DNA of 29,025 nt from a virus (taxonomy: Duplodnaviria > Caudoviricetes). The DNA lies in IMG/VR virus record IMGVR_UViG_3300037501_000260, positions 1 through 29,025 of that record; one strand, 5' to 3'. A program made the position numbers and the translations under genes. A model generated the notes under the pieces. It searched no databases, was not told the origin of the DNA, and worked only from the letters and a program-made list of their open reading frames with translations. Shown one piece after another: positions 143-29,025 of the stretch (its first letter is position 1; each line of letters begins with the position of its first letter).

Positions 143-475
143 TCGGAGCAAGAAAAAAGGAAATTCCTATTGTGCGCCCGATTGTTCGCATCGCCGCGAT
201 ATTTTAACCGCGCCGGTGTTGTATCTTACAACAGGCGCGTGCCCGACACGATAAGAATACGCTATCGCAATGATCCGGTGTGCGGAGTGCCGCCTGATTG
301 GATGGGATACGACGAGCGCGTCGGCGATGAGATACGGCTCGACTACACATGGATCGATGCTATATCTCCGTGCTCGTGGGCTGCCTGTGTACCGGTTGTT
401 GGTACCGCTCTATCGGCAATCGCAGCGGCAGACCACTACCCGATGCGCTATCTTGCCGGACTACGCCGCATCTAA
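2..475 (+). CDS. Class 3 lipase (alpha/beta hydrolase), C-terminal part; the gene starts at 28513 and crosses the junction (281 aa)
   Basis: Open frame through the overlap; IIVTGHSRGAAIA nucleophile elbow (GHSRG at 83-97), LFASPR, NDPVCGVPP (catalytic Asp candidate), DHYPMRY (catalytic His candidate). Confidence 0.9.
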   Translation, partial: GVKSIFDIVLSRARDALDRGAVRIIVTGHSRGAAIAQGVAVGLQKILSEQEKRKFLLCARLFASPRYFNRAGVVSYNRRVPDTIRIRYRNDPVCGVPPDWMGYDERVGDEIRLDYTWIDAISPCSWAACVPVVGTALSAIAAADHYPMRYLAGLRRI

Positions 476-1477: not shown

Positions 1478-1932
1478 TATACTATGCAATGAGAGGAATT
1501 CGAATAGTTCGGGTATTGAACGATCCCGAGATACGGGACGGAAAGATATGGATCAATGGTGTTCCACTATTGGGGATCACAGATGATGCTTCTAAGGCGA
1601 TAGCAGCGGACGCCTGCAGACGCCGTGCCTGGGACGAAATACCAGAAGAATACTATTGCCGTATTGGGGTGAACAGCAATGGTGTCACGGTAGTCTCGAG
1701 GGAAGACTACCGTAGAGCCGAGTGGGAGAACCTCCCGCAGGCGGAAAAGGAATATATAGAGATAGAGAGGATATTTCTGCAGTCATATCGTCGAGAAACG
1801 GACTCAGATGATGACAACGTCTATGATGCGCTTGCTATAAGAAGCAGAGCGCAACATATGATGAACGAGTGGATGAAGAAATACCCGAAAGAAGCGGAAG
1901 AAAAGGAAAAGGAGAAAGGAGGTGAAAAATAA
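1474..1932 (+). CDS. Hypothetical early protein
   Basis: 152-aa ORF coupled by ATGA overlap. Confidence 0.75.
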   Translation: MIYYAMRGIRIVRVLNDPEIRDGKIWINGVPLLGITDDASKAIAADACRRRAWDEIPEEYYCRIGVNSNGVTVVSREDYRRAEWENLPQAEKEYIEIERIFLQSYRRETDSDDDNVYDALAIRSRAQHMMNEWMKKYPKEAEEKEKEKGGEK

Positions 1933-2100
1933 ATAAAAATTAAAAAAAGAAGCGGTCGTATATTAACGTATGCGGCCGCGTCGCTTGCGGAGGCAGCGTT
2001 CCGCGAGGCGGCGCTGCGCGGCGAGCACGTCGCGCTGATGACGGACGACGGCAAGATCGTCGCCGTTACGCCGCATAGGAGACTGCGGCGCAAGCGATAA
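1933..2100 (+). CDS. Putative 55-aa protein with ATA start
   Basis: AAAGGAGGTG SD 8 nt before ATA; open frame IKIKKRSGRILTYAAASLAE...RRKR fills the gap exactly up to the terminator. Confidence 0.5.
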   Translation: MKIKKRSGRILTYAAASLAEAAFREAALRGEHVALMTDDGKIVAVTPHRRLRRKR

Positions 2101-6086: not shown

Positions 6087-6713
6087 ATGGATACAATAGG
6101 CAACATAATACGCTACGATACGGCTATTGCAAAAAAAATATCAGACGGCGATATACCTTGCATCGCAGAAGAAAAAAAAGCCAACGAAAACGATATTTTG
6201 AGACAAAAAATAATTCTGTCTTTTGGGAAACACTATGCCGACAAGTCGTTTGAAAATTTCCGCGACGAAAAAAACACGATTGGGAAAGCAAAAAAAGCGC
6301 TCGAAAAAAACATGGGGCTATATATATACGGCAAGTCGAGGACGGGGAAAACGCATCTTGCTTGCGGAATATATCGGCATATACACAAAACAATATCGCA
6401 TAATGTTTTGTTCAGAAAATGCGTCGAGCTCGATATTTTGTTTTCCGATTATAACGACGATGAGAGATTGCGAAAAATCGAGCTTTTGAAAAAAGTTGAT
6501 TATCTATTCCTCGACGACATTGGAGTTGGAAAGTTAACGCAAGAAAGGCATAGCATGTACTATTATGTGATAGACTATCGCCTATCTAACGACTTATGGA
6601 CATGCTACACGTCTAACTACATGACCAACGAACTTTGGAAAGGGAGCACGGATGCTGACCCAGCGAGGATAATATCAAGAATACGTGAGACTTGCAAAGG
6701 GATTGCGCTATGA
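6087..6713 (+). CDS. DnaC/IstB-like ATPase (helicase loader)
   Basis: Walker A GKSRTGKTHLA, Walker B LFLDDIG, YTSN, RIISRI; GAGGTG SD. Confidence 0.9.
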   Translation: MDTIGNIIRYDTAIAKKISDGDIPCIAEEKKANENDILRQKIILSFGKHYADKSFENFRDEKNTIGKAKKALEKNMGLYIYGKSRTGKTHLACGIYRHIHKTISHNVLFRKCVELDILFSDYNDDERLRKIELLKKVDYLFLDDIGVGKLTQERHSMYYYVIDYRLSNDLWTCYTSNYMTNELWKGSTDADPARIISRIRETCKGIAL

Positions 6714-7126
6714 TTACATTCGAGCAACAGATTTATTTGGCAGTTACTTCGCGCGGTGTTTTTGTCCGCACGCGGCGCGGCGATATACCAATAAGCAAGA
6801 ACGAATACGTGCAATGCGAATTTATCGATGACAAATCGTTTTCCGACTATTGCCATTGGCTTATGATGTATGCGCGCGGGTATTGCGAAAAAGATATTTT
6901 AATAAAAATTTTGAGCGGGGACGGGTTGTCAAGATTTTACGACGAACGCGACTTATCCATCCCGTACAGAGATACAACAGCATTACCTATACAGGCAAAA
7001 CAGGCAAAACAAGAAAAACAAGAAACAATAGACAAAAAGGAAAACGCAATCGATGCGATAAAAAAATATGAAGATGCTATCAAAAAAAAAGTGATCTTGA
7101 AACAGTGCTTGCGATATGCGGGATAA
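6710..7126 (+). CDS. Hypothetical protein
   Basis: ATGA overlap with the loader gene; its 3' end depends on an A9 run. Confidence 0.65.
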   Translation: MITFEQQIYLAVTSRGVFVRTRRGDIPISKNEYVQCEFIDDKSFSDYCHWLMMYARGYCEKDILIKILSGDGLSRFYDERDLSIPYRDTTALPIQAKQAKQEKQETIDKKENAIDAIKKYEDAIKKKVILKQCLRYAG

Positions 7127-7422
7127 CGCCAGTACGAGAGTACCGGTTCCATCCGCCGCGGCGATACCGGTTTGATTACGCGATACCGGAACGCAAGATA
7201 GCAATCGAATACGAAGGAGGCGTATGGATACGCGGCAGACACAATCGCGGGCGTGGGTATGTCAACGATTGCCGGAAATATAATCTCGCGGCAATCGATG
7301 GGTGGATAGTTTTGCGACTAACCTCCGACGATTTGATCCCAAAAAACTTGCAAAAAACAATCGATATGATAAAATCCGCGCTGGAGTGCACAAATGGAAA
7401 CTGCTATGTCAATCGCGCATGA
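7105..7422 (+). CDS. PD-(D/E)XK restriction-like endonuclease (DUF559/Vsr-like), start uncertain
   Basis: REYRFHPPRRYRFDYA...IAIEYEGG...RH...DCRKYN.A..GWIVLR. Confidence 0.8.
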   Translation: MLAICGITPVREYRFHPPRRYRFDYAIPERKIAIEYEGGVWIRGRHNRGRGYVNDCRKYNLAAIDGWIVLRLTSDDLIPKNLQKTIDMIKSALECTNGNCYVNRA

Positions 7423-7690
7423 GATATGCCGTGGGATACAAGCATCGTGTATTATGTGCGGCGATAGTTATAGCGAATTGCATCATTTCCCGAAACGCCA
7501 CAAACGCGGCGGCGCGCCGGAGATACTATACATAACGCTTTTCCCAGTTTGCAAAAAATGCCATGAAAAATCGCCGACAGCACGCGCAATAACCCAAAAA
7601 ACGAAAACAACATGCGCATACAACGCGATGTGGCGCGCTGCACTCGAGCATGCAAAACAAAACATTCTTCGCTATCGGACACTGGGGTAA
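7394..7690 (+). CDS. HNH-like zinc-binding protein
   Basis: CIMC...ELHH...PVCKKCH. Confidence 0.6.
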   Translation: METAMSIAHEICRGIQASCIMCGDSYSELHHFPKRHKRGGAPEILYITLFPVCKKCHEKSPTARAITQKTKTTCAYNAMWRAALEHAKQNILRYRTLG

Positions 7691-8376
7691 TCATACTAAC
7701 TGCCATTTTTTCTATTCTTTTTTTGTTTTTTTTGGCTGTACTCGCGGTATACGGAGATATAAAGCACTACTCGACATATCGCGCGGACAGCCATGAAGTC
7801 GTAAAATTGATACCAATGGCAGGCGCGGAAAAAATAATTGACGATTACGATTTTACGAACTGCAATTTCCGAAGCGGTGCGGTTAAAAGATTTTTGTCGA
7901 TGTTTCCAAAAAACAAATTCTCTCCCGAAGAGTCGGACTATATCGAGATCACTTGTGCCGCTCACTCAATTTCGCCGCTTATAATACTCACGAAACTTGA
8001 GACAGAAAATAATCTTGTTACTTGCAACCAAATCACAAATTACGAATACCGGAAACGTTGGGCGCTTGGATGCGCAATGTACACGACGATCAACAGCAAC
8101 GGCGTGATAATCAAGCCTTACGCAGGATTTGAAAAACAGATATATACCGCTTGCAAGAAACTGCGTGATCATTTCAATTCTTGGCGCGATGGTGATATAG
8201 TGTATCTCAATCTCGATACAATCGCAGTGTTGCCAATCAACGCCGCGACGTATGCGCTGCATAAATACACTCCATTTTGGGGCGAGCACAGAGAAAACGG
8301 CGCGCATTGCAGCGGCAATGAGTCTTTTATTGTCGTATTTAATAATTTCAAAAAAATATGGAAGTCGGTAAAATGA
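7612..8376 (+). CDS. Membrane-anchored lysozyme-like protein; true start probably near 7690
   Basis: Hydrophobic helix IILTAIFSILFLFFLAVLAVY; ISPLIILTKLETE, ALGC, YAGFEKQI, NAATYALHKYTP, GNESF. Confidence 0.55.
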   Translation: MRIQRDVARCTRACKTKHSSLSDTGVIILTAIFSILFLFFLAVLAVYGDIKHYSTYRADSHEVVKLIPMAGAEKIIDDYDFTNCNFRSGAVKRFLSMFPKNKFSPEESDYIEITCAAHSISPLIILTKLETENNLVTCNQITNYEYRKRWALGCAMYTTINSNGVIIKPYAGFEKQIYTACKKLRDHFNSWRDGDIVYLNLDTIAVLPINAATYALHKYTPFWGEHRENGAHCSGNESFIVVFNNFKKIWKSVK

Positions 8377-20973: not shown

Positions 20974-23115
20974 ATGCCGTACCCGGAGTACTCACCACAA
21001 GTTATCGACGAGGCGTTCCGGCATGTTGCTGGGGATGTCCCGCGGGAAAAAGACATAGCCGGTGCGCTCAAAGTCGGCAGCGTCGCGGCGCTTAATGAAT
21101 TGCTTTTCGGCTTGCCGGAACTCGCGTGGAAAAAAATGGCAAAACCTTCTGATACCGAGTCTTGGGAAAAACTAAAAAGCGAACACAAACTCGCTGGGAT
21201 GATCGGCGGAGGCCTTGGCCTTGGAACGAGTATGCTCATCCCCGGAGGTGCGGCGAGACTTGCCGCGCGTGGTGCAGGGCTTGCGGCTCGTGCGGCGCGT
21301 CCGGTTGCATCATACTTCCGCCTCGGCGAAAAAGCAGCGGAGGCGGTAGGCAAAGCTGCGATACCGGCATCGATACGACCGCTTGCGGCGGCGGGCGCGA
21401 AAGGCGCGACAGAGGCGCTCACGTTTGCCGCGCCGAGGATCGCCGGTGAGATGGCGCTCGGAGATGGCGACACTGATACCGCGATCACCGAGGCGCTCTT
21501 GTCCGCTGCTGTCGGCGGCGGCATCGGAGCAGCCGGTAGTATCCTCGGCAAGGCATTGCCAAAGATGACTGAGCTTGAGACACTCAAGGATATAGGATTT
21601 TCCAAAGGCGCGGCGCTCAAGGCAGCGAAAGAGGGGATGGACATAGGAGAGACGGCGCGGCTTGCGAAACAATGGATAGCCGATAGAGGCGGGTCGTTCC
21701 GCGATCCGGCGAAGCGCGCGCAGTTCCTCGATGAGATCAAAACAAAAGCATCGGATAAGTACATCGTTATCGATGAAGCGACAAAGGGCGCGAAACTGCC
21801 TGGGTCAAAAAAACCGAAGACGATGGCGGAAGAGATCAAAAAAACGCTCGTGCCGGAAGAAGCGAAAAAGTTTACAAAGAATTTTTCGAGCGAGCAAAAA
21901 AAAGATATTGATGATTTTTTTGCGCGCGTTGCAAAAGATGCGCCGAAAGTAGAAAATCAATGGGTGTTCCTCGGAAAACAACTGAACAAAAAAATAGCAG
22001 AATTCCCGCCGTATGGAAAGGGAACTGATCGCGAGCTGAGAAAGTATTATCTCGATGTGGAAAAACACGTTGAAGATCAGATTGCAAAGATCGTAAACCA
22101 AAAAGCGGCGAGCACCGGCAAGGATATATACAAGAGCGCGCAAAAAGAATGGGCTATGTATCGGCAGCTTGAAAAAGTAGCGCGGCAACAATGGGGAGGC
22201 ACTCTATCGGAGCTTTTCGGCGGCGGCAGCGACACGGCGATCAAGCTCTTGGCTATGCAGCAAGCGGCGCCGGTAGGTATTAGTGTCGCGGCGGGTGGCG
22301 GCGAGGCGCTACAGCAGCTCAAGGAGGGCGATATTGCATCAGCGGCAGGATCGCTTGCGCGCGGGCTCGGCGGATACGTAGCGGGGCGCGCTGCACATAG
22401 GGCGATACCATCGCTCACGGCTGCGCTTGAGCGCATCGGCGAGCGCCACGGAGCAAAAATTGAGCCAGCGCTTGAGCGCGCAGCGGGCGCGATTATACCA
22501 GCCGCAGTACCGGAAAAAGAAACCGCAGAAAAAACTGAAGAACAAAAAAAAGTTGAAGCGATGATGCCGGAAGCAGGTCGCCCGTGGTACGAAACAGAGA
22601 AGGGAAACGCTATCCTTACGCAAACGCTACAAGAAAAATATGAAAATGGTATCGCGAGCGGGATCATACCGGAAGATGTAAGTTTTGAACAGTTCGCCGA
22701 TGCGATGGCTGAAAAGTCTCGCGGGTTTGATCCGCTTGCGATCTCACACTGGTTTTTTGATAAAGAGGAAATAAAGGATTTCCGAAAACAGTACTCACAG
22801 TATCAAGCGCAGCAACGTGCAATAAGTGAAATCGAAAAACTACGACCGGCGCTTGAGAAATTCGGATTTTTATCGACGATGACACTTACAGGCGGAAAAG
22901 AAAAAGTTGCGGCAGATAGGATTGCTGATATACTGCAAGAATTCGAAATTGAAACCGGAAAATATAAATCGCCGCGCCCCAAAAAAGTGATTGGAAAAGA
23001 GATATACGACTTACTGAAAAACAGATCGCTTACACCGGATGAAAAAATGGAAGATCTTAAGAACAAGTTTTATTTTGGCGACACTACTTTGTTGCAACAG
23101 ATGGGGCTTGTGTGA
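20974..23115 (+). CDS. Putative large internal virion/ejection protein
   Basis: 713 aa, Ala/Gly-rich amphipathic helices alternating with charged segments. Confidence 0.6.
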   Translation: MPYPEYSPQVIDEAFRHVAGDVPREKDIAGALKVGSVAALNELLFGLPELAWKKMAKPSDTESWEKLKSEHKLAGMIGGGLGLGTSMLIPGGAARLAARGAGLAARAARPVASYFRLGEKAAEAVGKAAIPASIRPLAAAGAKGATEALTFAAPRIAGEMALGDGDTDTAITEALLSAAVGGGIGAAGSILGKALPKMTELETLKDIGFSKGAALKAAKEGMDIGETARLAKQWIADRGGSFRDPAKRAQFLDEIKTKASDKYIVIDEATKGAKLPGSKKPKTMAEEIKKTLVPEEAKKFTKNFSSEQKKDIDDFFARVAKDAPKVENQWVFLGKQLNKKIAEFPPYGKGTDRELRKYYLDVEKHVEDQIAKIVNQKAASTGKDIYKSAQKEWAMYRQLEKVARQQWGGTLSELFGGGSDTAIKLLAMQQAAPVGISVAAGGGEALQQLKEGDIASAAGSLARGLGGYVAGRAAHRAIPSLTAALERIGERHGAKIEPALERAAGAIIPAAVPEKETAEKTEEQKKVEAMMPEAGRPWYETEKGNAILTQTLQEKYENGIASGIIPEDVSFEQFADAMAEKSRGFDPLAISHWFFDKEEIKDFRKQYSQYQAQQRAISEIEKLRPALEKFGFLSTMTLTGGKEKVAADRIADILQEFEIETGKYKSPRPKKVIGKEIYDLLKNRSLTPDEKMEDLKNKFYFGDTTLLQQMGLV

Positions 23116-23878: not shown

Positions 23879-24223
23879 ATGGATATTGTTATCTCGGGTA
23901 TTATCGCTGTAGCGGTCAATGCAACGATCACAGCCGTCATCGCTGGGATTGTCAACCGCTGGCTCAAAAAACGCGATGAAGAGGCGAAGGAGATCATCGA
24001 TGCGATCAAGAGCGTGTCGGAAAAAGTAGACGCGCTGAAAAGTGAATTCGCTGTTTATCAGTTGACAGCACTGGAAAAATATGCATCAAAGGACGATCTT
24101 AACAATCAAAAAAATGAAAATACTACCGCGCATAAAGAATTTTGGGAGACACTAAATATCTTGAAAAACGACTTGACGGAGGTCAAAACTATGATTAACT
24201 TAACAAAGCGAGGTGCACTATGA
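23879..24223 (+). CDS. Membrane protein with one N-terminal TM and a coiled coil
   Basis: Hydrophobic aa 3-26 followed by heptad-rich sequence. Confidence 0.65.
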   Translation: MDIVISGIIAVAVNATITAVIAGIVNRWLKKRDEEAKEIIDAIKSVSEKVDALKSEFAVYQLTALEKYASKDDLNNQKNENTTAHKEFWETLNILKNDLTEVKTMINLTKRGAL

Positions 24224-26250: not shown

Positions 26251-26930
26251 TATTGACAAAACCGGTCAACCAACAAAAAATATCTCCGCCAGGCACAGCG
26301 CCAATTTTTTGGAACAAATTTAATTCAGCGATAGGAACTACCATTTCATCGGAAATCGGCGCTGATGTAGAATGTAATGAGCCAACGTTTGTCGCCGGAG
26401 TCTTCGGCAATGCAATCTACGCGCCGACAGCATCGCATGAATTATACAAGACACAATACACAGTTCCACGCGATGGTTGCTGCGAGATGTGGTTCAAGTC
26501 TGACGGATGGGACTGGGTCGGTAATAATCCCTCCGACGGGGCACAACATGTGTTCTACTATTCATGGGATACGCCTGTAACAGGAATAATTTTTTCTTTT
26601 GATCCAGGTGGTATCAGCGTATATGTATACGATGGCGACGGCAATTTACTTGATTATTTTGTCATGTCAACAATATCAGATATATATCGCGATATATGGA
26701 CGCATCTTGCATTGACATGGTCGTATACTAATGGTCGCGTGAGGTTGTATATCGATGGCACGATGGAGGACGAGTACAATTCTTTTGCGGTTGATATGGA
26801 CGGGTTCACACAATATTTGTCGATTGGTACATATTGGGCAGGGAGTTTGGAAATCAAAGGTGCTATAGACAATTTAAAAATTTACGATTTTGAAAAAACC
26901 GATTTTTCTGATAGGTTCGTTGAGGGTTGA
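26247..26930 (+). CDS. LamG/concanavalin A-like lectin domain protein
   Basis: EMWFK, WTHLALTW, RLYIDG, LSIG, GAIDNLKIYD. Confidence 0.85.
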   Translation: MILTKPVNQQKISPPGTAPIFWNKFNSAIGTTISSEIGADVECNEPTFVAGVFGNAIYAPTASHELYKTQYTVPRDGCCEMWFKSDGWDWVGNNPSDGAQHVFYYSWDTPVTGIIFSFDPGGISVYVYDGDGNLLDYFVMSTISDIYRDIWTHLALTWSYTNGRVRLYIDGTMEDEYNSFAVDMDGFTQYLSIGTYWAGSLEIKGAIDNLKIYDFEKTDFSDRFVEG

Positions 26931-26954
26931 CGATTGCGTTTTTGTAATTATTAT
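26927..26954 (+). promoter_or_regulatory. Putative moron promoter
   Basis: TTGACG, 16 bp, TATTAT. Confidence 0.55.
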
Positions 26955-27021: not shown

Positions 27022-27615
27022 ATGAAAATTATCTGTCTGTTACTCTCGTTTTGCGTCGCGCTATCCGCGGCGGATATTTATAGCGATGTCAAAAATGGAT
27101 ATTGCTATGAAGCGGCGTACAATTTTGTTGGTGTCGAGCCGGCATCGAACGTAACTGCGCTTATCACGTGCGGCAACGCACCGGTGTATCTCAACGCAGT
27201 GTTATCGGTCGATGGCAGCGGCGGGTACGCGGTGTGCAATATCAAACTCGCGAAAGACGTAGATTTTACAAACTCTGCAATCGCATCAAACACGTATGTC
27301 GCTGGGTCTCTGTCTAACCAGCAGGTCAGCGGCGTGTTTGATCTGCAGAACGCTAACCTCGCGCCGGTGATTTCTCAATCGCAGCCTGCATACACAGCAT
27401 ATCAGGGCGGCGTGCGCGAAACGTTTTTGATGGTGAGTAACGTTGGCAATATCACAAAAAATATCGCATTTTTCGGGACGGTAGGAAACAAAGTATTCAA
27501 AATGGAAACTCCTATTTTGCTTTACCCGAAGAAGACGTATTTTTTGATGGTTTCCAACAGCGCTGCTGCCGCTACGAACATAAGCGGAACGCTCATCGTA
27601 CAGATACGTAAGTAA
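27022..27615 (+). CDS. Secreted beta-rich protein (moron)
   Basis: GGAGGT SD; signal peptide MKIICLLLSFCVALSA. Confidence 0.75.
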   Translation: MKIICLLLSFCVALSAADIYSDVKNGYCYEAAYNFVGVEPASNVTALITCGNAPVYLNAVLSVDGSGGYAVCNIKLAKDVDFTNSAIASNTYVAGSLSNQQVSGVFDLQNANLAPVISQSQPAYTAYQGGVRETFLMVSNVGNITKNIAFFGTVGNKVFKMETPILLYPKKTYFLMVSNSAAAATNISGTLIVQIRK

Positions 27616-27626
27616 GTGTGGTTGAT

Positions 27627-27656
27627 AAGGCGGGGAGAAAATCCCCGCCTTTTTTT
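27627..27656 (+). terminator. Rho-independent terminator
   Basis: aaggcgggga-gaaaa-tccccgcctt followed by a T run. Confidence 0.9.
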
Positions 27657-27665
27657 GGAGGCAGT

Positions 27666-27887
27666 ATGCAAGCTCTGCGGGATGAAAAAGGAAAAACGTC
27701 ATCGATGCGCGTGATGTCTTTCATAATGCTTTTTGCAAGCATTGGTTTTTTGGCTTGCATCGGATACAATGTAATCATAGGACATTCCATTGACACGAAC
27801 GCAATTTTTATTTTTTTGATTTGCATTTGTGGCGCGTTCGCCCCGAAAACAATACAGAAGTTCGCGGAAAAAGAACTGTCGAGATGA
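27666..27887 (+). CDS. Putative holin (2 TM)
   Basis: GGAGG SD; two hydrophobic helices, charged C-terminus, upstream of endolysin. Confidence 0.65.
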   Translation: MQALRDEKGKTSSMRVMSFIMLFASIGFLACIGYNVIIGHSIDTNAIFIFLICICGAFAPKTIQKFAEKELSR

Positions 27888-28024
27888 AGCGGGAAAACAA
27901 GATAAAAAAAGTGATGGAAGAGTATAGGCATGGAAAACTCAAAAGCAGCAGCGGGAAAAAAGTTATCAAGCCGGAACAAGCGATTGCGATTGCGCTTGCG
28001 GAAGCGGGGAGGAGGAAAAGATGA
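27884..28024 (+). CDS. Small basic DUF6496-like protein
   Basis: KVMEEYRHGKLKSSSGKKV...QAIAIALAEA. Confidence 0.7.
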   Translation: MKRENKIKKVMEEYRHGKLKSSSGKKVIKPEQAIAIALAEAGRRKR

Positions 28025-28509
28025 TAGAAAGAAAGATATCGGAGATCGTAGTCCATCACTCCGCGTCTGCGTTTGGAGATGCACAGCTCATCAGGCACTG
28101 GCACGTCGATGAGCGCGGGTGGGGCGATATAGGATATCATTATGTTATCTGCAACGGGCGCGCAAAAAAGGATAGTGCTTTCTCGCCGCTTCTCGACGGG
28201 CTTATCGAGTTTGGACGCGATATATCAATCCCTGGAGCGCACGTACCGGAAGTCAATCCAACATCAATCGGAATATGTCTGATAGGCGAAAAAAGAGAAG
28301 ACTATACCGATAGGCAGTTGCAATCGCTTGTGATGTTGATAGCATTACTCAAGCGCGCGTATCCTTTTGCGGAGGTCAAGGCGCACAAAGAATATGATCC
28401 GTCCAATAAGCCGATGTGCCCTGATATTGGTATGGACTCTTTACGCGCAAAAATATCGGCATACGAAACGATAGCTTCTTCCGCTTTCAAAAATCTTGTT
28501 TTTTGGTGA
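28021..28509 (+). CDS. Endolysin, N-acetylmuramoyl-L-alanine amidase (Amidase_2, T7 lysozyme type)
   Basis: IVVHHS, GWGDIGYHYVI, GAHV, SIGICLIG, AHKE..KPMCP (His/His/Cys zinc ligands). Confidence 0.93.
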   Translation: MIERKISEIVVHHSASAFGDAQLIRHWHVDERGWGDIGYHYVICNGRAKKDSAFSPLLDGLIEFGRDISIPGAHVPEVNPTSIGICLIGEKREDYTDRQLQSLVMLIALLKRAYPFAEVKAHKEYDPSNKPMCPDIGMDSLRAKISAYETIASSAFKNLVFW

Positions 28510-28512
28510 TCT

Positions 28513-29025
28513 ATGCACGCTGGAAAAGGTTTTTTGCAATTTTTGTTGCGCTCTTGTGTCACGTCGTATTTTGATCCGCGCACACACAAACTCAATCCAG
28601 ATGCGTATAATGGAAATGGAAGTCTCAAGAAAGAATATGAAGGCAGCGTTGAAGATTATTTGCCGTATGATAGCCACGAATGGTTTTACGGCGGCAATGA
28701 TTGCGGTTTCACTTGGGCGAGAACTTTGTATGGGCAAAAAACTTTTGGTGTTACACTACGGGGTACATATAATACCATAGGGTGGGCTTTGAACTTTGTC
28801 GCTGAAAAAAATTATGTGATGGACTATGAACCTTGGGGGAGCGTCACTGCTACAGGGATAGCGGTACATGCCGGTTTCCATTTTGGCGTCAAAAGCATAT
28901 TTGATATTGTACTTTCCCGCGCTCGTGATGCGCTTGATCGCGGCGCGGTACGTATCATCGTTACTGGGCACAGCAGAGGTGCAGCGATAGCGCAAGGTGT
29001 TGCTGTTGGGCTTCAAAAAATTTTA
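28513..29025 (+). CDS. Class 3 lipase, N-terminal part (continues to 475)
   Basis: ATG 3 nt after the amidase stop; VTLRGT, W..N, VHAGFH, VTGHSRGAA; no stop before the window end. Confidence 0.9.
   Translation, partial: MHAGKGFLQFLLRSCVTSYFDPRTHKLNPDAYNGNGSLKKEYEGSVEDYLPYDSHEWFYGGNDCGFTWARTLYGQKTFGVTLRGTYNTIGWALNFVAEKNYVMDYEPWGSVTATGIAVHAGFHFGVKSIFDIVLSRARDALDRGAVRIIVTGHSRGAAIAQGVAVGLQKIL
28884..29025. repeat. Terminal direct repeat, right copy
   Basis: Matches 1-142 with one mismatch. Confidence 0.97.

Follow-up and report, generated by a model that had tools for sequence, protein, structure and literature searches.

A class 3 lipase gene closing a putative lysis cassette in a freshwater phage without a credible spanin

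The last gene of a four-gene block in a small freshwater phage, which by gene content is a podovirus-like tailed phage, encodes an intact class 3 serine hydrolase of 281 amino acids. We consider it moderately probable that this enzyme, closing a lysis operon, is an accessory lysis lipase that would be released through holin lesions onto the phospholipids of the envelope. The lipase gene is found directly behind that of an amidase in a genome without a credible spanin, and this placement recurs in unrelated phages, which together makes a role in lysis likely. Having no export signal, the lipase would build up in the cytoplasm and would exit with the amidase once the predicted holin opens the inner membrane. 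It would then likely cut acyl esters of envelope phospholipids, and this cleavage would weaken what remains of the envelope. It should be noted that we infer from the sequence the identity of the holin, the co-expression of the genes, the release route, the substrate, a diderm host and an effect on the outer membrane. We regard a replacement of spanins by the lipase as doubtful. All coordinates (Table 1) refer to the window, i.e., the whole stretch of 29,025 nt that was analyzed.

How spanin-less phages of Gram-negative hosts pass the outer membrane is an open question to which there is one answer to date, the gp28 peptide. The phage described here is a clean case: its small genome is complete and encodes no credible lipoprotein, and the cassette, four genes long, could be cloned as a whole for complementation of lambda Rz/Rz1. 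Its contribution is a complete genome in which the lipase has no lipoprotein partner; the lipase clade is divergent, its endolysin partner is new, and the accompanying survey counts the misses as well as the hits. According to the accessible text of one survey, about 13% of the phages of Gram-negative hosts are without a spanin, and some hosts may, in the view of its authors, not require one (PMC6139136).

Table 1. Features of the lysis region, of its surroundings and of the assembly junction (positions in the window)
Feature	Position	Strand	Remarks
114-aa protein, N-terminal TM and helical tail	23879..24223	+	no informative family match; outside the cassette
197-aa signal-peptide protein, moron-like	27022..27615	+	own terminator and promoter-like site (26927-26954); no family; outside the cassette
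Intrinsic-terminator-like hairpin and T run	27627..27657	+	hairpin 27627-27651; stem of 10 pairs, 7 of them G-C; 5' boundary of the cassette
73-aa two-TM protein, likely holin (class II-like)	27666..27887	+	TM at residues 20 and 41; GGAGG ribosome site
46-aa basic DUF6496 protein	27884..28024	+	PF20106 27.5 bits (cut-off 24); net charge +10; ATGA overlap with both neighbors
162-aa stand-alone Amidase_2 endolysin, T7-lysozyme type	28021..28509	+	PF01510 E 3e-12; phrog_822 amidase E 4e-30; no wall-binding domain
Class 3 lipase, residues 1-171	28513..29025	+	nucleophile Ser154 at 28972-28974
Class 3 lipase, residues 172-281	143..475	+	Asp215 at 272-274, His269 at 434-436; hydrophobic helical insert near 240-266
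Assembly overlap	28884..29025	.	duplicate of 1-142; single mismatch ATC/ATA, synonymous (both Ile)

The genome carries genes for a terminase, a portal-like protein, a major capsid protein, an SU10-type adaptor, a tail collar, a replisome organizer, a DnaC-like loader and RecT (Pfam, PHROG and NCBIfam matches), and it forms a circle of 28,883 bp once the 142-nt overlap of the record's ends is collapsed. The lipase gene runs across this junction: 28513-29025 joined to 143-475 gives 846 nt without an internal stop. An earlier note on this DNA, made from the sequence alone, had proposed such a split class 3 lipase frame 3 nt past the amidase stop, and the collapsed overlap, the motifs and the Pfam score all confirm it. 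Read support for the junction, which that note had wanted, is provided by a single Logan unitig of 7,915 nt, in which 27500-29025 of the window corresponds to 6343-7868 and 1-189 to 7727-7915. The unitig thus covers both ends and reaches 47 nt beyond the overlap. The freshwater metagenome run from which it comes may be the source sample, so that it counts as a second assembly rather than as an independent sample. The identical 281-aa protein (P0001) is on record from two JGI/IMG contigs, and an open frame across the overlap, this record and the bridging unitig together indicate that the junction is sound. With a full-length homologue in addition, a lipase produced artificially by the junction can be rejected.

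Two observations concern the assembly itself. The longest JGI contig with the same lipase, amidase, capsid and terminase has 33,235 nt and therefore exceeds the circle by 4.35 kb, through either redundancy or an insertion. Furthermore, a 59-nt unitig (depth 4.5) exits the window at 1492 and resumes with letters from about 1934, and the depth is 8.2 over 1463-1923 as compared with about 14 on the flanks; the jump and the drop in depth point to a population variant without most of the 152-aa gene at 1474-1932 (window 1493-1933). Close relatives of the phage were found neither in viral contigs with the capsid as query nor among annotated phages with the portal as query.

The lipase contains the motifs RGT83, VHAGF118, GHSRG152, SPR188, DPV215, VPP220 and DHY268, and its two halves score 27.3 and 37 bits with Pfam Lipase_3 (PF01764; cut-off 22), a family that is also precomputed for P0001. 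The GxSxG elbow is present and the catalytic triad is S154/D215/H269. In an alignment of 69 sequences G152, H153, S154, G156, D215 and P221 are invariant and H269 is conserved in at least 90%. The model predicted from this alignment (pLDDT 79.5) is a single catalytic domain, which superimposes on 1uwc with Z 23.4 (rmsd 2.8 over 218 residues) and on 6qpr with Z 22.1. In general, fungal class 3 lipases, feruloyl esterase A and plant PLA1 give Z 20-23, whereas unrelated alpha/beta hydrolases do not exceed 7.5. The checks put forward in the earlier note, i.e., a PF01764 search on the rotated genome and a structure prediction, have thus given a family score above the cut-off and a fungal-lipase fold in the predicted model. 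Its statement that the protein has no clear signal peptide also stands: none was found, the 19-residue hydropathy of the N-terminus peaking at 0.46. The hydrophobic helical insert before the catalytic His has a value of 1.66 and could be a membrane-surface binder. Of four close relatives tested, two have such an insert at a threshold of 1.5, with values of 1.65 and 1.51.

A homologue with 40% identity aligns across 98% of the length of the lipase. In a profile search of 1.84 billion representatives the closest sequences form a small clade (P0008, P0131, P0067, P0132 and P0133). Among the proteins in the sister clade of the lipase are some with names from Oscillospiraceae, Lachnospiraceae and Clostridia. 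With P0001 as query there was one weak match, and a metagenome scan gave one match of 27%. Close relatives of the N-terminal half were absent from the viral contigs, as were those of the C-terminal half from the annotated phages.

With the class 3 lipases of PF01764 (Rhizomucor miehei lipase, Aspergillus FaeA and plant PLA1) the protein shares the family score, the GHSxG elbow, the Ser-Asp-His order and the fold. It differs from them by the absence of a signal or propeptide, by GHSRG in place of GHSLG, by the hydrophobic insert before the catalytic His and by its context in phage lysis. The LysB family, the lytic esterases of mycobacteriophages such as Ms6 and D29, is of the cutinase type. Like the LysB genes, the lipase gene encodes a serine alpha/beta hydrolase and lies beside the endolysin gene in a lysis cassette. 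Unlike LysB, the lipase belongs to Lipase_3, its model matches a cutinase with a Z of only 6.5, and the phage shows no sign of a mycolate host. Neither half matches Cutinase at E 0.01 or a LysB PHROG, and LysB is not among the fold matches listed for the model. In the accessible part of PMC5707550, LysB is assigned to the third step of lysis; by analogy, the lipase would work like a LysB, yet it is not one.

The effectors Tle2/TseL of type VI secretion systems are members of Lipase_3. The phage lipase has in common with these effectors, which damage membranes from the periplasm only, GxSxG and the order Ser-Asp-His, whereas neither VgrG/PAAR delivery genes nor a periplasmic immunity gene are found here. 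For example, TseL, a Tle2 lipase, exerts its toxicity in the periplasm but not in the cytoplasm, according to the available text of PMC9927574, and a gating of this kind is therefore possible for the phage lipase. Class 3 lipases in lysis cassettes are not described in the literature searched, which included only a minority of the subscription journals. The accessible portions of PMC8951688, PMC13222311 and PMC9229222 contain nothing on the subject, the last of these speculating that an SGNH esterase functions in adsorption or lysis (PMC9229222).

The four genes of the cassette, in the order holin-like, DUF6496, amidase and lipase, are joined by ATGA, ATGA and TGA-TCT-ATG, the lipase start being 3 nt past the amidase stop. 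The terminator-like hairpin lies directly ahead of the ribosome site of the first gene. Four terminator-like sites were found in all as compared with 2.3 +/- 1.6 in shuffled sequences, and it is therefore the position of the hairpin and not the number of such sites that counts as an argument. On the 3' side the lipase gene is followed by an AT-rich gap and then by an early promoter-like site (704-732); a promoter of its own was not found above chance. The 73-aa protein is likely a holin, judged from its size, its two predicted TMs and its position; it has no family match in Pfam, PHROGs or NCBIfam, and there is a weak Atlas lead to DUF2644 (score 0.82, below 0.9; 13% of the members). The order holin, small basic protein, amidase and lipase given in the earlier note has accordingly held with respect to gene order and coupling, the basic gene being DUF6496, while the word "holin" goes back to TMs and position only.

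Outside the cassette, the protein encoded at 7612-8376 has an N-terminal TM and then a domain with a 'AAHSISPLIILTKLETE' stretch, and it has no match in Pfam, PHROG or NCBIfam. The stretch presumably resembles lytic-transglycosylase folds, and the protein could be a second, membrane-anchored wall enzyme.

Spanins were searched for among 1,190 starts in all six frames of the circle with a strict and a relaxed lipobox rule, which gave 11 and 18 hits, respectively. Neither rule yielded a credible spanin or lipoprotein. The only hits in real genes were those in the 73-aa two-TM protein, in the 197-aa protein and in an upstream extension of the tail-collar gene; the others are short or antisense frames without support. 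As a u-spanin the 73-aa protein is rejected because, with FLAC at Cys31, only about 10 residues remain to the second TM, which is too short for the periplasm. The 197-aa protein (LSFC) is rejected for the lack of a C-terminal TM, a maximum hydropathy of 1.26 and a Pro content of 3%, and the relaxed-rule hit at 23039 is the tail-collar extension. The 114-aa protein was rejected as an i-spanin: no basic residue precedes its TM and KKR follows it (N-out), and there is no embedded lipoprotein. It is more likely a second holin-like protein. Since no plausible o-spanin, u-spanin or i-spanin is among the hits, the genome is regarded as being without a credible spanin. The absence of an Rz/Rz1-type pair noticed earlier is thereby upheld under both rules, and a pair involving the 114-aa protein, which had been named as a finding that would speak against the lipase reading, is not borne out. 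Like the spanins of lambda (Rz/Rz1) and T1 (gp11), the lipase occupies the last position of its cassette, here in a genome without a credible spanin. Unlike them it has neither a membrane anchor nor a lipobox and is an enzyme rather than a fusion protein.

The outer membrane could instead be broken by the cationic DUF6496 peptide in the manner of the disruptin gp28 of phage phiKT, with the lipase at most a helper, which we consider quite unlikely. The DUF6496 gene lies between the holin-like gene and that of the endolysin, the position held by gp28 in phiKT (bioRxiv 10.1101/515445, in its accessible text), and with +10 at 46 aa its product falls within the loose screen of less than 80 aa and +4 or more described there. 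That paper itself, in the part available, calls the screen noisy (bioRxiv 10.1101/515445). The peptide is, however, less amphipathic than gp28, with a mean hydrophobicity of -0.39 versus 0.01 and an 18-residue moment of 0.42 versus 0.68. Elsewhere DUF6496 is linked to the head module: in all three other phages viewed (13 records) it is found at the head or packaging module, once two genes after a lysozyme.

A host without an outer membrane would need no spanin, and the lipase would then act on the cytoplasmic membrane. This explanation, which cuts across the other readings and which we hold to be rather improbable, can point to the replisome-organizer and Gp157 genes of the phage (Pfam, PHROG), both common in phages of Firmicutes, and to the Clostridia-type names in the sister clade of the lipase. 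Against it are the stand-alone amidase of the T7 type without a wall-binding domain, of which the best 15 of 1,399 phage records all have hosts in the Proteobacteria and which thus leans to a diderm host, and a spacer-like match in the run. A 91-nt unitig of the run matches 2245-2278 of the window with one mismatch and then has a CRISPR-repeat-like end, which we take to be of type I-E; AAT is present at 2243-2245. The unitig is likely to contain a spacer against this phage and is the best lead to the host. Sixteen loci carry the repeat; they belong to Gammaproteobacteria, Chlorobiaceae, Fibrobacteria, sulfate reducers and unclassified proteobacteria, in every case to diderm or unclassified proteobacterial genomes. 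Taken together, a diderm host is likely. A matching spacer was not present in the 16 loci or in five of their genomes, a search of the Chlorobiaceae family gave only 80%, GC-rich matches of 58 nt in 3 of 122 genomes, and the capsid of the phage was absent from the genomes sampled in two phyla (251 and 301).

Five IMG/VR scans for viral Lipase_3 genes gave 32 distinct contigs, of which 27 were kept after removal of three with the domain in a protein of 1,361-1,801 aa (L019, L033 and L034) and of two near-duplicates (L046 and L055). In seven of the 27 loci a named endolysin (Pfam or PHROG) is encoded within about 1.2 kb of the lipase: Hydrolase_2 in L027 and L058, lysozyme in L047 and L051, glucosaminidase in L050, GH108 in L059 and the phrog_894 endolysin in L056. 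A probable endolysin lies beside the lipase in four more, namely L025 (MepK-like, E 0.005), L040 (C39-like, under the cut-off), L030 (PHROG of unknown function in the position of an endolysin) and L060, whose call we take from an M15-type motif only. At an assumed chance rate of 10% the binomial P is 0.015 for seven and 3e-5 for eleven of the 27, and 0.10 for the five of 25 that remain when two related pairs are collapsed and only named endolysins are counted; since this rate is an estimate and the loci were found by motif patterns, the values are suggestive only. In a quickly built tree, which comprises 34 lipases (the present protein, those of seven annotated records and those of 26 of the 27 loci), the cassette members are scattered over several branches among non-cassette ones, and deep support is weak.

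The ends of late operons collect cargo genes, and the lipase may be such cargo, placed by the amidase because genes get added there and having another job, such as remodeling of host lipids, release of fatty acids or attack on extracellular lipid or ester coats. We regard this explanation as rather unlikely. Sixteen of the 27 loci have no recognized endolysin nearby, among them large phages with the lipase amid metabolic genes. They also include the closest relative with known context (P0008, 40% identity; tree sister L017), which has none within 6 kb and lies behind a two-TM gene on a 50-kb, 21%-complete fragment of a larger phage. Moreover, feruloyl esterases are among the top fold matches, one of the annotated records (vir526) names a host in the Methanomicrobiales, and the moron-like gene at 27022-27615 shows that the region takes cargo. 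What speaks against cargo is that the lipase is coupled to the amidase stop and lacks a separate promoter above chance, that in L025 and L047 the lipase lies between a holin-like gene and the endolysin, and that its partners belong to several unrelated endolysin families.

That the lipase is a virion protein acting on the envelope at infection is very improbable. It follows tail or late structural genes with no endolysin recognized in L038, L041, L043, L045 and L057. In the present phage, however, the moron-like gene and a terminator separate it from the tail genes, and the protein has no linker or tail domain in addition to its catalytic domain.

We therefore return to the accessory lysis lipase. 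The earlier note had suggested that the lipase may be an outer-membrane lysis enzyme released through the holin, an analogue of LysB from a different hydrolase family, and this is supported in part. In favor of it the gene is intact and coupled to the amidase, the product is cytoplasmic by sequence and outside the LysB family, there is no credible spanin, and the arrangement recurs beside unrelated endolysins; the 16 loci without an endolysin do not fit. Of the survey proposed there, the linkage to lysis genes was found in part, as counted above, and the expected anticorrelation with envelope lipoproteins is not general, since many cassette lipases adjoin a lipoprotein. In 12 phage loci the lipase gene is directly adjacent to a lipoprotein-type gene for which no i-spanin partner is evident. 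The lipoprotein-type gene precedes the lipase in L021, L028, L030, L032, L035, L036, L050 and L051 and follows it in L027, L047, L049 and L058; it is absent from the window. In three of the seven annotated records, those of Ralstonia phage Raharianne, Burkholderia phage BgManors32 and Shewanella phage QDWS, the block containing the endolysin ends with a lipoprotein and the lipase, the endolysin lying 4, 4 and 6 genes upstream, respectively. In these cultured phages with a terminal lipoprotein-lipase pair the gene can be deleted in the phage's own host. The other four records (Cr-LKS4, P-SSM2, Xoo-sp13 and vir526) have no endolysin nearby. Two terminal-repeat genomes with the lipase beside a probable endolysin (G002 and G004) have no lipoprotein by the strict rule, a soft result because this rule missed the evident lipoprotein of L027 (LQAC), the relaxed rule having been applied to the window only; a third (G005) has some.

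It is tempting to generalize that tailed phages have repeatedly and independently recruited class 3 lipases as a fourth component of lysis. In spanin-less genomes such as this one the holin-released lipase alone would then remove the outer-membrane barrier via the phospholipids of the inner leaflet, an enzymatic third route in non-mycolate diderms beside spanins and disruptins. As a whole this is speculative and in our opinion rather unlikely to hold. Were it correct, mycobacteriophages would not be the only phages with lipolytic lysis; otherwise the lipase is another cargo enzyme at the end of a late operon.

Some loci of the survey deserve mention in their own right. In L043 (3953-5779; genome G009) the lipase gene is followed by two TM genes and comes after the tail module. 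An endolysin was not recognized among the 31 proteins scanned from this 71%-complete genome, in which the lipase may be in the endolysin's place. Archaeal lipids are ether-linked, and a Lipase_3 gene (L075, 4444-5040; BK063670.1) is present in a virus with a host in the Methanomicrobiales on record. In L045 (781-2463) a reverse transcriptase gene directly precedes that of the lipase, possibly as part of a diversity-generating retroelement. Finally, OP650936.1 ("Hujiaoplasma phage zrk29-1") and OK094664.1 (Shewanella phage vB_Sb_QDWS) are both 47,902 in length and have the same lipase scores, so that one of the two host labels may be wrong.
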